Below, one piece after another: positions 1 through 22,416 of a DNA stretch of 37,731 bases; the stretch's first letter is position 1, and the number at the start of each line of letters is the position of its first letter. Under the pieces are notes generated by a model, which did no database searches, was not told where the DNA came from, and saw only the letters and a list, made by a program, of their open reading frames with translations. Origin of the DNA: an uncultured Ruminococcus sp. GTDB lineage: Bacteria; Bacillota; Clostridia; Oscillospirales; Ruminococcaceae. Both the position numbers and the translations under genes were made by a program. The stretch lies in contig CAMWHN010000001.1 in assembly GCA_947174085.1 (NCBI GenBank), positions 1 through 37,731 on the forward strand, read 5' to 3'.

Positions 1-609
1 ACTGGTTAGGCGAAATATGTGCAATCTATGTAGGAAAAGAAAAAAGCATGATTGTCGATACTTTATCAGGTTATAACTACAATGATGACTATGAGGGGTA
101 TGATTATCCAGATGTAATACCACCAGATATATGCGATTATGAAGAAATAGAAACTGTCGCATTAAAAGAAATATTGGAGGCTTGGTATGAAGAAATCACT
201 CTGATTCACAGAAAGAAGATAATAAATATGAGCAAATACATAACAAAAGATAGTAAACTTACTAAAAGATTACGCATCTCTGTTTGTTCCTCTGAGGACA
301 AACAATCAAAAATATTAAATACCCTCATTATAATAGATTTGGAAAATAAAAGAAACACATTAAATTTACTGAATAACATTGAAGCTGTTCTTAATGGTGA
401 ACAAGAAACTTATAACTGGTTAGGCGAAATATGTGCAATCTATGTAGGAAAAGAAAAAAGCATGATTGTTGATACTTTATCAGGTTTTAACTATGATGAA
501 AAATATGAAAGTTATGATTATCCAGATGTAACTCCACCAGATATATGTGATTATGAAGAAATAGAAACTATTGAATTAAAAAATATATTGGCTGCTTGGT
601 ATGATGCCA
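1..609 (+). repeat. tandem direct duplication, period 414 bp (1-195 vs 415-609)
   Basis: nt 1-55 are identical to 415-469. Similarity continues with scattered substitutions to gcttggtatga at 180-190 and 594-604. Confidence 0.9.
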
Positions 610-623
610 TAACGAATAATTAA
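1..623 (+). CDS. hypothetical small acidic protein, 5'-partial at window edge; two tandem paralogous units read as one open frame
   Basis: The frame of ORF 48..623 stays open back to position 3 (WLGEICAIYVGKEKS). Unit 1 ends ...ILEAWYEEI with no stop and runs into unit 2, which has a possible own start at ATG 228 (MSKYITKD...). Unit 2 ends ...ILAAWYDAITNN-stop. No family recognised. Confidence 0.5.
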   Translation, partial: WLGEICAIYVGKEKSMIVDTLSGYNYNDDYEGYDYPDVIPPDICDYEEIETVALKEILEAWYEEITLIHRKKIINMSKYITKDSKLTKRLRISVCSSEDKQSKILNTLIIIDLENKRNTLNLLNNIEAVLNGEQETYNWLGEICAIYVGKEKSMIVDTLSGFNYDEKYESYDYPDVTPPDICDYEEIETIELKNILAAWYDAITNN

Positions 624-627
624 CACA

Positions 628-661
628 AAAGCTGTTGAATTTATTTTAGTCCAACAGCTTT
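628..661 (+). terminator. stem-loop after the duplicated gene (AAAGCTGTTG / CAACAGCTTT, 10 bp)
   Basis: Perfect 10-bp inverted repeat 628-637 / 652-661 with a 14-nt loop, 5 nt after the stop at 621-623. The T-tract is only the TTT inside the stem. Confidence 0.45.
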
Positions 662-765
662 CAGAGTAATTGCATGAAAAAAATCGAGAAATATGTTATA
701 TAAGTATTGTCATAATAATGAATGTGTGCAATATTCTTCATATACATTACAAGAATCATCAAAAT

Positions 766-803
766 AAGAAAGACGACTTTATGCCGTCTTTCTTGCTTTT
801 TTT
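766..803. terminator. bidirectional intrinsic terminator between the duplicated gene and glmM
   Basis: AAGAAAGACG (766-775) pairs with CGTCTTTCTT (785-794). It is followed by GCTTTTTTT on the + strand and ATTTTGAT on the - strand. It lies 11 nt beyond the glmM stop (815). Confidence 0.7.
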
Positions 804-814
804 CATTTTATGAT

Positions 815-2200
815 TTAAATAGCATGCCCTTTAGCACGAATCACATCAATAATAGCATTAACTTGTTTATGACAAGCTTCTTCAGTTGGTGCTTCCGCCA
901 TGACACGAATTAAAGGCTCTGTGCCAGATTCACGGACTAAAATTCTACCTGTTTCTCCAAGTACAAGTTCAGCAGATTTCACAGCATTTTGTACATCAGG
1001 GTCATTTTGTGCAAGTGTTTTATCATGGACTTTTATATTTACAAGCACTTGGGGATAAATTTTTAACTGTGATGCAAGTTCACTAATTTTTGCTTTTCTA
1101 GCAATCATCACTTCCATAATTTTCAAACTAGTTAAAATGCCATCACCTGTTGTGGCATATTTTGAAAAAATAATATGTCCTGACGCTTCCCCACCAATAC
1201 GACAATCATTTTTAGCCATATATTCATAAACATATTTATCACCGACAGCAGTTTTTGCATAGTCTATCCCCTGCTCATCAAATGCTTTATATAATCCAAA
1301 ATTTGACATAACTGTTGTCACAACGGTATTATTTCTAAGTTTTTCACGGTCTTTCATATATCTGCCGTAAAGATACAAAATATGGTCACCTGTTAAAATA
1401 TTACCTTTTTCATCTACACAAAGACATCTGTCAGCATCACCGTCATAGGCAAAGCCAATATCAAGCCCATTTTCTACAACAAATTTTTGCAATCCTTCCA
1501 TATGTGTTGAACCGGCATTTTGATTAATATTCAAGCCATTAGGATTAGCATTTATTACATAAGTGGATGCGCCCAATGCATCAAATACAGATTTTGCTAA
1601 ATTCCATGCCGAACCGTTTGCACAGTCTAAACCAACTTTAATGCCTTTGAACGAATATAATCCTAATGAAATTAAATAGCCTATATAGCGATTTCTTCCG
1701 GAAACATAGTCCACTGTACAGCCAATAGCGTCTCCTGTTGCAAAGGGCAATTCCAAAAATTTTTTTCCAAATAGATTTAAATTGCCATCAAGATAGCTTT
1801 CTACAAGTGCAATTGTTTCCTCGTCCATTTTTTCACCGTTTTTATTAATTAATTTAATGCCATTATCATAATACGGATTATGACTTGCAGAAATCATAAT
1901 ACCACAGTCAAATTCATCTACTCTCGCCACATAGGACACAGACGGTGTTGTTGTGACATGTAATAAATAAGCATCAGCTCCAGACGCTGTCAACCCACTG
2001 ACTAATGAATATTCAAACATATAACTAGAACGTCTTGTATCTTTGCCAATAACAATTTTAGCTGGTGTAGTATCGCCGTTTTGTTTTTTCAGTTCGCCAT
2101 AATACCAGCCTAAAAATCTGCCGACTTTATATGCATGGTCAGCTGTCAAAGTTTTATTTGCTTCTCCACGGAAACCATCTGTACCAAAATATTTACCCAT
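815..2200 (-). CDS. glmM: phosphoglucosamine mutase
   Basis: 461 aa. N-terminus MGKYFGTDGFRG and phosphoserine loop SASHNPYYDNGIK. AGGAG lies 10 nt upstream of the ATG. Confidence 0.95.
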   Translation of the reverse strand: MGKYFGTDGFRGEANKTLTADHAYKVGRFLGWYYGELKKQNGDTTPAKIVIGKDTRRSSYMFEYSLVSGLTASGADAYLLHVTTTPSVSYVARVDEFDCGIMISASHNPYYDNGIKLINKNGEKMDEETIALVESYLDGNLNLFGKKFLELPFATGDAIGCTVDYVSGRNRYIGYLISLGLYSFKGIKVGLDCANGSAWNLAKSVFDALGASTYVINANPNGLNINQNAGSTHMEGLQKFVVENGLDIGFAYDGDADRCLCVDEKGNILTGDHILYLYGRYMKDREKLRNNTVVTTVMSNFGLYKAFDEQGIDYAKTAVGDKYVYEYMAKNDCRIGGEASGHIIFSKYATTGDGILTSLKIMEVMIARKAKISELASQLKIYPQVLVNIKVHDKTLAQNDPDVQNAVKSAELVLGETGRILVRESGTEPLIRVMAEAPTEEACHKQVNAIIDVIRAKGHAI

Positions 2201-3248: not shown

Positions 3249-4130
3249 TTATGTTTCTTTATTTTTCTTACGATGAAATAGCCAAGAAGATTTTTTAATT
3301 ACAAATCTTGCTGGCAACAAAGAAATTTTTTGTAACAATTCATAAATGATATCCGCTACAAGATTGACTGCAAATATCAGAGCAAATGCTATTATGAATA
3401 CTAACAGTTCCCCACAGAAAGAATTTGCTTCTATCATTCCAGAGAAAATACTTTCATTCAGGAATTTTATAAATTTTATCATGGCTCCCATCATGAGAAT
3501 ATACCCAAAAAAATAAATATTCCCTGCAAGCATTGGCAAAAATGCAAAAAGTAAAATAAAAGCAATTACAATAATAAATAAAATTCCAATTAACACATTT
3601 ATGACAGGATTTTTATTAAATATAGCATTTAATAATTCATCAAAATTATCAAGAAAAAGCCAGTCAGCTCCGTCTATTTTTTTCAAAATATTAATGGGAA
3701 TACTTATCAGATAAAAAACAATATTATCATAAACATAATTTGTAATTTTTGCTTCCAGTCTTCCGATATGCTTATGTTTCTCATAATATTTGTCCAGAAA
3801 AAGTCTCAGAAAAAATGAACTGTAAATAATCGGTGCAATCAACAAAAACACACTGTCATGAATGGCTTCTGCAATATCAGCTATCCCAAAATAAAGAATT
3901 TCAAGAGGGATTTTCTCAAAAAAGCGATTTGTGATATTCAGATGTGGCATATATGTTTTAAGAACATTTGCTTCTGAAACGATTCTTGTCATACCACTCC
4001 AGCCAGTATATTCCCAACTGTCATCCCACGGCTGATAAAAATTACTTATGATATATATCATAATATATAATATTATCCCGATTGAGAAAAGCTTATGCTT
4101 GATAAAAAAATCTTTTATATTATATAGCAT
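3249..4130 (-). CDS. uncharacterised multi-pass membrane protein embedded in the his operon
   Basis: 293 aa with several long hydrophobic runs ([15 protein letters not shown]; [25 protein letters not shown]; [21 protein letters not shown]). Its ATG lies 11 nt inside the end of hisA. Its stop is 22 nt before the hisF start. No motif recognised. Confidence 0.7.
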
Positions 4131-17604: not shown

Positions 17605-18756
17605 TCAGCAATCATTTTTAATTTTTTCCCGAACAAATGCTCTTGCTTGTGAATCTGCCTGTAAAATATCTTCATAATCATGAATTTCGCCATTAGGAAT
17701 ACTCTGCATTGCAGATTGTACTAATTCACCAATTTGTAAAAATTTAATCTCATCACGCAAGAAATAAGCAACTGCTTCCTCATTTGCGCCGTTGACAATA
17801 GCCGGCAACAAACCACCAGTTTTAATTGCCTGAATTGCCGAACTTAAGCAAACAAACGTCTCATAATCCGGCTTTTCAAAACTTAATATTCCACAATCCG
17901 TGAGAGATAAAGGCTTTGTCGGACAAGATTTGCGTTCTGGATATAATAACGCATACTGAATCGGAATTTTCATATCGGGTACGCCCATTTGTCCAATCAC
18001 AGCAAAATCTTCAAATTCTACAGCTGAATGCAAAATACTTTGTCTATGCACAACAATTTCTATCTGGTCTGGTTCTAAATCAAACAGCCATTTTGCTTCA
18101 ATAAATTCAAGTCCTTTATTCATCAGCGTAGCCGAATCAATTGTAATTTTATTCCCCATATTCCAGTTAGGGTGTTTTAACGCATCTTTTGCAGTTACAT
18201 TCACAAGCTCTGCTTTTTTCTTGCCAAAAAAAGGACCTCCAGACGCTGTTAAAATCATTTTTCTGATTTTATTATTTTCATTGCCTTGCAAGCACTGAAA
18301 CACAGCCGAATGTTCACTATCCACAGGATAAATTTTGACATTTTTTTCACGAGCTTGTTTCATGACAAGCGCACCACCGGCAACAAGTGTTTCTTTATTG
18401 GCAAGTGCAATATCTATACCCGAATCAATTGCTTTCAGAGTCGGCAACAAACCAACCATGCCCACCACGCTATTTAATAAAATATCATTATTTTTATCAG
18501 AAGCAATTTGACATAAGCCTTGCATACCTGTTAAAATTTCAATTTTTTCACCAGATAATAAATTTTTTAATTTATCGGCATAGTTTTCTTGATAAATACA
18601 AACACAATTTGGCTTGTATTTTTTTGCTTGTTCGGCGAGTTTTTCTACTTGGGAATAGGCTGACAATGCTGTAATTTTTAAATTATGCTTTTCAGCAACT
18701 TCTAAAGCCTGTGTGCCAATCGACCCCGTAGAACCTAAAATAGCTACTTTTTTCAT
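17605..18756 (-). CDS. dxr: 1-deoxy-D-xylulose 5-phosphate reductoisomerase
   Basis: 383 aa. ILGSTGSIGTQ NADPH loop, LANKE, DSEHSA, and NKGLE. Confidence 0.96.
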   Translation of the reverse strand: MKKVAILGSTGSIGTQALEVAEKHNLKITALSAYSQVEKLAEQAKKYKPNCVCIYQENYADKLKNLLSGEKIEILTGMQGLCQIASDKNNDILLNSVVGMVGLLPTLKAIDSGIDIALANKETLVAGGALVMKQAREKNVKIYPVDSEHSAVFQCLQGNENNKIRKMILTASGGPFFGKKKAELVNVTAKDALKHPNWNMGNKITIDSATLMNKGLEFIEAKWLFDLEPDQIEIVVHRQSILHSAVEFEDFAVIGQMGVPDMKIPIQYALLYPERKSCPTKPLSLTDCGILSFEKPDYETFVCLSSAIQAIKTGGLLPAIVNGANEEAVAYFLRDEIKFLQIGELVQSAMQSIPNGEIHDYEDILQADSQARAFVREKIKNDC

Positions 18757-18826
18757 GCGAAAACCTCTCTATTAATTCAATAAACCCATCTCCAGACAGA
18801 CAGGTTTATTGAAATTTCATCAATAG

Positions 18827-18885
18827 GCGGCAGGATACCCCGACTTCTTAGGTCGTGGAGGAATGCCGCTTCCTCCTTTCTTGTT
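18827..18885 (+). terminator. two mutually exclusive hairpins; the 3' one looks like a + strand intrinsic terminator
   Basis: GCGGCA (18827-18832) pairs with TGCCGC (18864-18869), with inner CGAC/GTCG. The alternative is GGAGGAA (18857-18863) pairing with TTCCTCC (18870-18876), followed by TTTCTTGTT. Only the + strand has the T-tail. Confidence 0.4.
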
Positions 18886-18912
18886 GACAAAATAAAAATA
18901 ATATGATATACT
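18884..18912 (+). promoter_or_regulatory. near-consensus sigma-A promoter facing antisense to the cdsA-dxr operon
   Basis: TTGACA (18884-18889), exact 17-nt spacer, extended -10 TGaTATACT (18904-18912). Confidence 0.6.
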
Positions 18913-18918
18913 GTAGTT

Positions 18919-19249
18919 AGACATTATTGTGAGAAAACTGTTACAGACAAAAAAGGCACTCACAGGCATCTTGACAAGTTAAGATAGCAGGTTTTACTGT
19001 CTAATCGTACAGTATGTAAAATCTTAAGCGTAACAACAAACATCTTACTGTAAGGCTGGGAATTAGCAGTACCGCTTACAGTTGTATAGGAGTATATCTT
19101 GTATACAAGGGGCGTTGTCAGCCGTCCCACGATGTCACGTCAGTTCGCTGTACAGTGTTCTAAAAAGGTAGGAGATTGCAAAATCGTCCGCACTACCGGA
19201 TAGTGACAAGCCCCCACTTCTTAGCGAACGAAGTGAGCGTAAGTGGGGG
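18919..19249 (+). ncRNA. candidate structured non-coding RNA of unknown family (about 330 nt)
   Basis: No ORF of 60 aa or more on any frame. G+C is 47-50% over 19081-19260, against 17% in the 22261-22320 spacer (hand counts). Stacked local helices include loops with GNRA (GCAA) and UUCG sequences (on 3-4-bp stems), plus a 9-bp GC stem at the 3' end. G-T wobbles are compatible only with the + strand. See findings. Confidence 0.5.
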
Positions 19250-19265
19250 TAGTTGACTTACATCA

Positions 19266-20132
19266 TCAAAAAATAGGGAATAATTTTATACAAGTATAAA
19301 ACGCTGGAACAACAAATAATACACTATCGAATCTATCCATCAAACCGCCATGTCCTGGCATAATATTCCCATAATCTTTAATACCTTTCTGACGTTTAAT
19401 CACAGAAGCTGTCAAATCTCCCAGAACACTGACACCAGCACAGACTAATCCTAATAAAGCCGATTTCAAGCCTTGCAATATACTAAAATCTATGGCATTG
19501 CACTTTGCATAAATCAAGAAAATTAATACAAATATCACAGCATTGCTAATTAAACCGCCAATAAAGCCCTCCACTGTTTTTTTAGGACTAATCTCAGGGC
19601 AAAGCTTATGTTTTCCCAATGCAACACCTGAAAAATAAGCACCAGAATCCGCAATCCATGCACCGCAAAGTGCTAGAATCACATAAAATAAGCCATGTTC
19701 TGCATAAGTTCCATCATCATTAAAAATTATTAAAAATCTAATAGAATATGGCACAAGAATCATACTGGCAATCATAAAAGCACCCTGTTCAACCAGAAAA
19801 TTTTTCGGGTGTCGCATATAATCCCAGAATAGTAATGCCAAGCAAACTGGCAGTAATACATCATCTAATGCATTTATTATCTCCAAAGATGTTAGTGAAG
19901 ATACTATTCCAAAAAATTTATGTGAAAATTCCAGCAAAGAAAATACGCCATAAACCATAACACCAACAGTTGCGAGCTTAAATTCTAAACCACCAATTGC
20001 CCGAATTAATTCAAATAAAATAATTCCAACAATCAATGCTAATGCTATGGGAAATACAAGCGTTTTATGCAAAATCAACACAGCGACAAGAATAATAATT
20101 CCTACACCAGAAGAAATTAACCGTTGTTTCAT
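19266..20132 (-). CDS. cdsA: phosphatidate cytidylyltransferase
   Basis: 288 aa polytopic membrane protein with the CDS signature SVIKRQKGIKDYGNIMPGHGGLMDRFDS. Confidence 0.92.
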   Translation of the reverse strand: MKQRLISSGVGIIILVAVLILHKTLVFPIALALIVGIILFELIRAIGGLEFKLATVGVMVYGVFSLLEFSHKFFGIVSSLTSLEIINALDDVLLPVCLALLFWDYMRHPKNFLVEQGAFMIASMILVPYSIRFLIIFNDDGTYAEHGLFYVILALCGAWIADSGAYFSGVALGKHKLCPEISPKKTVEGFIGGLISNAVIFVLIFLIYAKCNAIDFSILQGLKSALLGLVCAGVSVLGDLTASVIKRQKGIKDYGNIMPGHGGLMDRFDSVLFVVPAFYTCIKLFPIF

Positions 20133-22242: not shown

Positions 22243-22271
22243 ATTTTACACTAAAATTACAAATCTGTAAA
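22243..22271 (-). promoter_or_regulatory. predicted promoter for pyrH-frr (needed because tsf is no longer upstream)
   Basis: Minus-strand TTTACA (22271-22266), 17-nt spacer, TAAAAT (22248-22243). Confidence 0.4.
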
Positions 22272-22416
22272 GAGTTTTTTCAAAAAAATTTTCTGAAAAT
22301 TAAAAAATATTTTTGGACAAGCTACATATTACAGAAAATAATTGCATATCTTGCTAATAAGCAAATTATAAATTATTAAATTATAAATTAGAAATTATCA
22401 AGGAGAAAAATGCGTC

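Follow-up and report, generated by a model that had tools for sequence, protein, structure and literature searches.

A probable non-autonomous IS200/IS605-family element with a predicted standalone omega-RNA between cdsA and dxr of an uncultured Ruminococcus sp.

The cdsA-dxr Spacer and Its Insert

We analyzed a stretch of 37,731 nucleotides (the window) from an uncultured Ruminococcus sp. (assembly GCA_947174085.1, contig CAMWHN010000001.1), in which a spacer of 509 bp (18757-19265) separates the stop codon of cdsA from the start codon of dxr. An earlier note, made from the sequence alone, had given this spacer the same length and had taken it for an orphan, novel structured RNA inserted into a normally contiguous operon. 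The length and the insertion stand, but the insert (18821-19257) is very probably a non-autonomous element of the IS200/IS605 family that lacks an open reading frame (ORF), carries a standalone omega-RNA and derives from an element with tnpB as its only gene. The features of the locus are the following.

Minus strand: gene order in the 37.7-kb window, pyrH, frr, uppS, cdsA, spacer, dxr, rseP, ispG, polC
18816-18820, plus strand: TTCAT, the transposon-adjacent motif (TAM, the target site), host DNA immediately 5' of the left end
18821-19257, plus strand: the whole element, 437 bp, very probably an ORF-less palindrome-associated transposable element (PATE) of the IS200/IS605 family, delimited by insertion relative to relatives and by end-to-end homology to other copies
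18821-18883, plus strand: left end with a long imperfect palindrome, 18827-18832/18864-18869 around 18838-18844/18852-18858
18857-18863/18870-18876, plus strand: intrinsic-terminator-like hairpin followed by a T-tract, overlapping the left-end palindrome (terminator scan)
18884-18912, plus strand: sigma-70-type promoter TTGACA-17 nt-TG-n-TATACT (promoter scan, 11/12 plus extended -10)

Orthologous cdsA-dxr loci were compared in the three closest available Dxr relatives (L001, L006 and L007, with 93, 88 and 83% identity); among the proteins on record, the best matches of the window's Dxr come from metagenome-assembled genomes (MAGs) of Oscillospiraceae, none above 93% identity. In all three relatives cdsA and dxr are only 65-72 bp apart, and alignment showed a 437-bp block with clean edges (18821-19257, plus strand) that is present in the window only. 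Written in the orientation of the window's plus strand, the unoccupied site of L001 is TTTCAT/TTACATCA and the occupied site of the window is TTTCAT/CAATAGG...GTAGTTGAC/TTACATCA, with zero duplicated bases; the element has neither terminal inverted repeats nor a target-site duplication. The foreign DNA is thus confined to 18821-19257, a part of the 18779-19265 that the earlier note had assigned to the insert, whereas the hairpin at 18776-18813 is native. The latter, an imperfect hairpin of 16 bp just upstream of the ribosome-binding site of dxr and without a U-tract, is kept in the insert-free relatives L001, L006 and L007; the TTCAT of the element is 3 nt from its foot.

The G+C content of the insert is 43.0%, compared to 34.3% for the window, and the local counts made by hand in the earlier note (29, 28 and 30 G+C per 60 nt across 19081-19260 versus 10 at 22261-22320) are exact. 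As that note had stated, there is no ORF of 60 aa or more, the longest within the spacer having 56 aa. A 23-codon ORF had been listed as the only one starting with ATG, but a second one of 49 codons (18820-18969, minus strand) crosses the left end and the promoter of the element; it is probably fortuitous.

Ends and Promoter of the Element

Subterminal imperfect palindromes lie near both ends on the same strand (18827-18869 and 19211-19249), all copies keep both of them, and the word CCCC(G/C)ACTTCTTAG is common to the left and right ends. The left-end region, including the terminator-like site, is conserved in all copies; by analogy with IS608 and IS200, its palindrome may be the recognition hairpin of TnpA and its terminator may block incoming transcription. 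It is the combination of a fixed 5' motif, no target duplication, one-strand subterminal palindromes and ends common to tnpB elements that defines a non-autonomous member of the IS200/IS605 family.

The scan recovered the promoter TTGACA-17-TGaTATACT that had been proposed for 18884-18912 (11/12), and its position predicts a transcription start near 18919-18920. A promoter is conserved at this position in the ORF-less copies, and the tnpB-bearing element L039 (see below) has TTTACA-17-TGaTATAAT at the equivalent position upstream of its ORF, so the promoter of the window element corresponds to the ancestral tnpB promoter. Downstream of 19257, the scan gave no terminator on the plus strand. When the insert was compared by BLAST with phages, the promoter segment alone matched (one matched record is annotated as a promoter); the search against plasmids returned no match.

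Two other readings of the left part of the insert were considered and rejected. A riboswitch-like attenuator could be drawn from alternative pairings of the left end (GGCGGCA/TGCCGC and GGAGGAA/TTCCTCC), but the region is the conserved left end of an insertion sequence. The terminator just upstream of the promoter had suggested a circularly permuted element or an integrated circle, but the arrangement is identical in the full-length element, apart from the intervening tnpB.

Homologues with tnpB

The first homologue was found in viral contigs using a hairpin-only pattern (CCCCCACTT..AAGTGGGGG), the other matches of which were mostly unrelated terminators. This viral contig (L010) holds a 392-bp element with the same ends as the insert, and the shared 18-mer at the right end, TAAGTGGGGGTAGTTGAC, led to L039 (IMG/VR 3300028048_000203), an element that bears tnpB. 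L039 and a further element, L135 from the rumen MAG RUG327, are both of the IS1341 type (tnpB only) within the IS605 family. The left end of L039 is 93% identical to insert positions 3-60, and that of L135 likewise reaches 93%; the right ends of the two show 83-85% identity to the insert, and the tnpB ORF is located between the ends. The right end of L039 shares 85% identity with insert positions 248-437, the last 190 nt of the insert: positions 3270-3460, directly after the tnpB stop at 3297, align with 19068-19257 of the window, and the homology ends at GTTGAC. The insert thus matches the end of a mobile element with confidence, and its RNA is homologous to the 3' omega-RNA region of tnpB-bearing elements, which removes the claim of an orphan. 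The element very probably arose by loss of most of the tnpB ORF, with the promoter, the left-end palindrome and the whole scaffold retained; tblastn of TnpB against the insert gave no significant coding remnant (best E = 0.12).

The ORF of L039 encodes 374 aa with a match to the Pfam family Cas12f1-like_TNB (E = 2e-19) and a match to OrfB_IS605 that is below the curated cut-off. It also matches solved structures of Cas12f and TnpB (E = 9e-26 to 4e-6), the Cas12f structures (E = 9e-26) being closer than ISDra2 TnpB (E = 4e-6).

The right-end 18-mer also abuts IscB-like genes with an RRXRR domain (E = 1.5e-44) on the opposite strand (L038:4345-4362, minus strand; L040:1860-1877, plus strand; L040:188-1585, minus strand). 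The similarity of the insert to these two loci is confined to its last 18 nt. It therefore seems that a single type of transposon end is common to TnpB, IscB and ORF-less elements, in agreement with what has been described for the ISGst families (PMC10055086).

Distribution of ORF-less Copies

The right-end 18-mer was found in more than 118 stretches of species-representative genomes, the hosts of which include, among the matches listed, Geobacillus, Anoxybacillus, Lysinibacillus, Desulforamulus and rumen MAGs of Oscillospiraceae and Ruminococcus. Pairing of left-end and right-end profiles gave 26 elements of 391-405 bp without an ORF, along with a handful of tnpB-bearing ones of 1.37-1.53 kb; overall, the ORF-less copies of Geobacillus, Anoxybacillus and rumen samples range from 390 to 440 bp. 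All 27 full-length ORF-less elements (the window included) align end to end and are located 3' of TTCAT, their flanks are unrelated, and each of them terminates in GGGGGTAGTTGAC. Among all copies the homology stops exactly after GTTGAC, the terminal TTGAC of the window element being 19253-19257. The element accordingly recurs at many unrelated sites.

A metagenome scan with the motif of the 5' hairpin (H1, see below) yielded four full-length rumen copies at different sites (L182, L262, L200 and L224), with TTCAT directly 5' in all four; the three that have an intact right end were compared with the insert and are 87-92% identical to it (91.6% for L182). The Bacillaceae copies are more distant, with about 78-83% identity to the insert where they can be aligned. 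Several genomes hold more than one copy: the rumen MAG RGIG4890 has four, at contig ends, as is expected for a repeat; in G. zalihae seven ORF-less copies accompany at least one with tnpB; and ORF-less and tnpB copies occur together in Anoxybacillus sp. D401a and in related rumen MAGs.

Some observations on the copies and their surroundings may be added. In L200 an inverted second fragment of a right end (478-580, minus strand) abuts the left end of the ORF-less copy (581-965, plus strand), which may represent a nested or adjacent insertion. In 28% of the 3' flanks (159 distinct right ends, loci L038-L278) the complement of a Shine-Dalgarno sequence is present 4-18 nt past the right end, compared to 4% of random 22-mers and 6% of the positions after any TTCAT. 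The complement of TTCAT being ATGAA, many copies separate a gene on the opposite strand from its ribosome-binding site by lying just ahead of the start codon; the window copy is not placed in this way.

Structure and Covariation of the RNA

The fold of 18919-19265 on the plus strand has an energy of -99.6 kcal/mol (z = -2.82), which not one of 100 shuffled sequences equalled, whereas the minus strand was no better than shuffles (z = -0.42). For the comparative analysis, 29 non-redundant sequences were aligned with MAFFT and the alignment was not fitted to any structure. From this alignment RNAalifold predicted, unaided, the 5' hairpin, a long-range helix (19134-19141/19199-19207) and a pairing of the H8 loop (19117-19122/19252-19257), with double changes at 11 of 25 pairs of the consensus. 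Covariation was counted on a 73-pair structure written from the helices of the window, with slid partners and 500 shuffles as controls: 84.5% of cells were paired (39-43% in the slid controls), 252 cells were doubly changed (33-61), 43 pairs were changed on both sides, and the covariation score was 0.294 (0.055-0.082); none of the 500 shuffles reached the observed values. The parts of the RNA, all on the plus strand, are as follows.

18929-18963: H1, 5' hairpin GUGAG-AAAA-CCGUU..loop..AAGG-CA-CUCAC, 93.7% of cells paired
18979-19107: variable middle domain, absent from minimal RNAs of ~180 nt
18979-18985/19021-19027: H2, around H3 at 18995-19000/19009-19014, middle domain
19047-19054/19075-19082: H5, middle domain
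19083-19088/19102-19107: H7, plus 19090-19092/19098-19100, 92% paired, 8 of 9 pairs changed on both sides
19109-19257: core omega-RNA scaffold, sharing 85% identity with the sequence downstream of tnpB in L039
19109-19114/19123-19128: H8, core scaffold
19117-19122/19252-19257: pseudoknot of the H8 loop with the terminal GUUGAC, 98.9% of cells paired
19134-19141/19199-19207: long-range helix, 100% paired, 7 of 8 pairs changed on both sides
19167-19171/19193-19197: H11; 19174-19177/19182-19185: H12; both core scaffold
19211-19219/19241-19249: right-end hairpin, core scaffold
19258-19277: predicted guide segment TTACATCATCAAAAAATAGG, host DNA antisense to the stop codon and 3' end of cdsA, proposed from the architecture of TnpB omega-RNAs (PMC10055086)

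Most helices that the earlier note had drawn show compensatory changes among the homologues. In total nine helices are kept: those at 19083-19088/19102-19107, 19109-19114/19123-19128, 19167-19171/19193-19197, 19174-19177/19182-19185 and 19211-19219/19241-19249 with changes on both sides; those at 18979-18985/19021-19027 and 18995-19000/19009-19014 more weakly; and two that it had not drawn, 18929-18933/18959-18963 and 19134-19141/19199-19207. Pairing amounts to 85-100% of cells in H1, H7, H11, H12, the long-range helix, the pseudoknot and the right-end hairpin, and to 77% in H8. In H1 two pairs are doubly changed (UA 11, GC 7, AU 5; GC 11, AU 8, UA 7), and in the pseudoknot a C-to-U/G-to-A double change occurs in 2 sequences.

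The two stems of 8-9 bp (19047-19054/19075-19082 and 19211-19219/19241-19249) are exact inverted repeats in the window; for the former, H5, only 38% of cells are paired in a region that is variable and poorly aligned. The scores of H2, H3 and H5 are lower because MAFFT is out of register there or the region is absent in some copies, and compensatory pairing in the middle domain can be seen by eye (UUAAGAU/AUCUUAA versus CUCGAUGU/ACAUCGAG). The H5 stem-loop of the window is ~22 nt longer than in its closest rumen relatives (19055-19074); the extra bases (GGGAATT..AGTACC) resemble the last tnpB codons in L039 and in Geobacillus copies, so the window copy appears to keep an older state. Other details of the earlier note did not survive: the CAG-TTCG-CTG hairpin at 19141-19150 is not conserved among homologues, nor is a TTGTCA/TGACAA pseudoknot, the conserved one being 19117-19122 with 19252-19257, and the words TACAGT/ACTGTA were counted 5 times (0.3 expected) rather than at least 6.

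The minimal variants, in which the RNA part is ~180 nt long (L204:761-943, L159:3357-3539, L177:517-695, L191:7698-7877 and L205:4705-4883), have H1 joined straight to the core scaffold and lack the middle domain.

Fold z-score, covariation and scan agree with the earlier view of a structured plus-strand RNA that has its own promoter and no terminator. The orientation proposed from a G-U pair also holds across homologues: frequent G-U pairs would turn into A-C mismatches if the opposite strand were transcribed, so the plus strand is the RNA strand. It is scarcely credible that the functional RNA is instead on the minus strand, where an omega-RNA of the IscB type would begin beyond this transposon end and be read in the direction of the operon. 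The adjacency of the right-end 18-mer to IscB-like (RRXRR) genes on the opposite strand in L038 and L040 would suit such an RNA, but the similarity to these loci covers only the last 18 nt, the minus strand folds no better than shuffles and would turn many conserved G-U pairs into A-C mismatches, both the promoter and the homology to tnpB belong to the plus strand, and HEARO (RF02033, the IscB omega-RNA) gave no match, either in the window or at E up to 10 in 18700-19320.

The search of the whole window against Rfam matched no family at the gathering threshold, and at E up to 10 only chance matches of the eukaryotic microRNA/small nucleolar RNA type were returned for 18700-19320. Lack of an Rfam match at any threshold, together with a strong promoter and real structure, is what a previously unknown structured regulatory RNA gene owned by the host (similar to a riboswitch, a ribozyme or a small RNA) would show. 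Such a gene is nevertheless extremely unlikely, because the insert is absent from the orthologous sites of relatives, has transposon ends, always follows one target motif without duplicating it, recurs in distant genera at many sites that are unrelated, and consists in its 3' half of the region downstream of tnpB. An IS110 bridge RNA, a group I or group II intron and a retron RNA were likewise rejected, based on the TnpB homology and the IS605-type ends.

The 5' Hairpin H1 Inside tnpB

In every ORF-less copy H1, of the form 5'-GAG-AAAA-CCGUU...AAGG-CA-CUC-3', comes immediately after the promoter. The two half-motifs of H1, GAGAAAACCGTT and AAGGCACTC, also occur 29 nt apart inside tnpB ORFs, namely in 17 of the 17 elements in which the motif precedes this right end by more than 350 nt. 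These correspond to 13 distinct sequences from several genera (L039:2884-2932, L042, L082, L099, L106, L125 and L147 among them), in which the embedded motifs encode RENRW...(S/T)KAL at a distance of 540-620 nt from the right end. The half-motifs are nearly invariant, including synonymous sites, and the intervening bases vary yet keep the distal stem. All ORF-less derivatives examined, including those with ~180-nt RNAs, retain H1, although the latter, minimal copies were retrieved by a pattern that included both half-motifs. Matches to the H1 pattern in soil metagenomes were discarded as uninformative, since they represent another reading frame of unrelated tnpB genes (LRKxLxxKGT).

Because the omega-RNA models in the literature were restricted to the final 250 nt (PMC10055086), H1 may so far have escaped description. 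We tentatively consider, as a rather doubtful proposal, that H1 is an undescribed functional module of the guide RNA in the Cas12f-like TnpB clade, e.g., a signal for TnpB binding or 5' processing; if so, the working omega-RNA of this clade would combine two widely separated portions of the tnpB transcript.

Proposed Mechanism and Its Weighing

Following the literature on IS608, ISDra2 and ISGst elements, a Y1 TnpA from elsewhere in the genome would mobilize the top strand of the element in a peel-and-paste manner. The promoter would drive a scaffold RNA of ~340 nt that reads through the right end at 19257, the left-end terminator would shield the element from transcription coming from outside, and the final 16-20 nt of the RNA (TTACATCATCAAAAAA..., antisense to the cdsA stop) would serve as the guide. 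The empty site of L001 consists of TTCAT plus 19258-19273, a match in sequence only. After excision, TnpB from a full-length sister element would bind the RNA and cut the empty site (TTCAT and guide match), and recombination with the sister chromosome would then restore the element.

The earlier note had proposed an antisense or insulating role from the missing U-tail and the run into cdsA, which nothing supports; both follow from the design of an omega-RNA, the guide of which is flanking DNA. The related idea that the host has co-opted the element, with convergent transcription or hairpins tuning cdsA and dxr-rseP-ispG as an antisense RNA or insulator, appears very unlikely. The plus-strand RNA must indeed run antisense into the 3' end of cdsA for want of a terminator, and the element sits inside an essential operon, but its location is not conserved, other copies are at unrelated sites, the relatives manage without the insert and there is no sign of site-specific selection.

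Several points weigh against an omega-RNA element with partners in trans. Neither tnpA nor tnpB nor iscB was found in the 37.7-kb window (tblastn with TnpB; family scans of 17 of the 39 ORFs of at least 110 aa), and mobilization of the element and use of its RNA would depend on partners encoded outside this window. A single copy of the element is present within the window, and the RNA and its use by TnpB in this host are predictions from sequence. The models of TnpB-associated omega-RNAs, RF02998 and RF03065, gave no match even at E up to 10; the scaffold of ~340 nt exceeds the 250-nt window used for TnpB omega-RNA models in the literature; and H1 is not accounted for.

Two of these points could also be read as evidence of a dead relic, an element of the same origin that was stranded by the loss of its partners TnpA and TnpB and of which the RNA, if made, has no function. 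The window, to the extent scanned, shows no transposase or nuclease gene and a single copy, and the insert is specific to its lineage as the closest relatives lack it. On the other hand, the copy is intact, with a promoter of 11/12 and all invariant positions, conserved helices and the pseudoknot kept, it is 91.6% identical to another rumen copy (L182), and related rumen MAGs hold both ORF-less and tnpB copies. A relic of this kind is possible, although we regard it as unlikely, and a non-autonomous element with a standalone omega-RNA remains our preferred interpretation.

This kind of RNA and element has already been described, and the window adds an example from a rumen Oscillospiraceae bacterium. 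For annotation, it follows that a G+C-rich spacer of an AT-rich Firmicutes genome that is dense in hairpins and has a strong promoter pointing outward can be an ORF-less element of the IS605 family, a class that escapes both protein-based finders of insertion sequences and Rfam. The 29 sequences also provide a covariation-supported structure for an omega-RNA lineage the TnpB of which is close to Cas12f, and this may interest engineers of compact nucleases.

Comparison with Known Systems

Meers et al. (2023; PMC10055086) reported that PATE-like ORF-less elements of G. stearothermophilus "often encode omega-RNAs", which TnpB uses in trans. In their system TTCAT is the TAM of ISGst5, the guide of the TnpB omega-RNA is the DNA 3' of the right end, and the TAM and the transposon-end motif differ at positions 3 and 5. 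The window element conforms to this motif rule, with TTCAT and TTGAC differing at positions 3 and 5. Mobilized standalone omega-RNAs that work in trans with compatible effectors are also part of the summary of Altae-Tran et al. (2023; PMC10691335), which also covers the "standalone omega-RNAs" of Altae-Tran et al. (2021).

Like the PATE-like elements of Geobacillus and these standalone omega-RNAs, the window element has no ORF, carries subterminal palindromes, is inserted 3' of TTCAT without duplication and would require TnpB in trans. Unlike the Geobacillus and Anoxybacillus copies, it resides in a low-G+C, rumen-type Oscillospiraceae bacterium and has a canonical -35 box, an H5 stem that is 22 nt longer and an extra hairpin (19141-19165). 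With L039 and L135 it shares the left end, the promoter position, the right end, the terminal TTGAC and the RNA core, and counterparts of H1 and H5 are present inside their ORF; unlike them, it is without the ~1 kb of tnpB coding sequence and thus cannot make the nuclease.

The predicted RNA resembles the right-end element RNA (reRNA) of ISDra2 and ISGst2 in that it occupies the 3' part of the element, is read in the direction of tnpB, has a pseudoknot adjacent to the predicted guide and would take this guide from the flank (architecture as in PMC10055086 and PMC10097598), but it differs in its longer scaffold, its conserved 5' hairpin and a partner TnpB that is nearer to Cas12f; no sequence similarity was seen, though no search was aimed at it. 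The Rfam families RF02998, RF03065 and RF02033 are of the same kind, i.e., guide-RNA scaffolds at transposon ends, yet the window RNA matches none of them; according to Meers et al. (PMC10055086), RF02998 and RF03065 cover a small subset of TnpB omega-RNAs.

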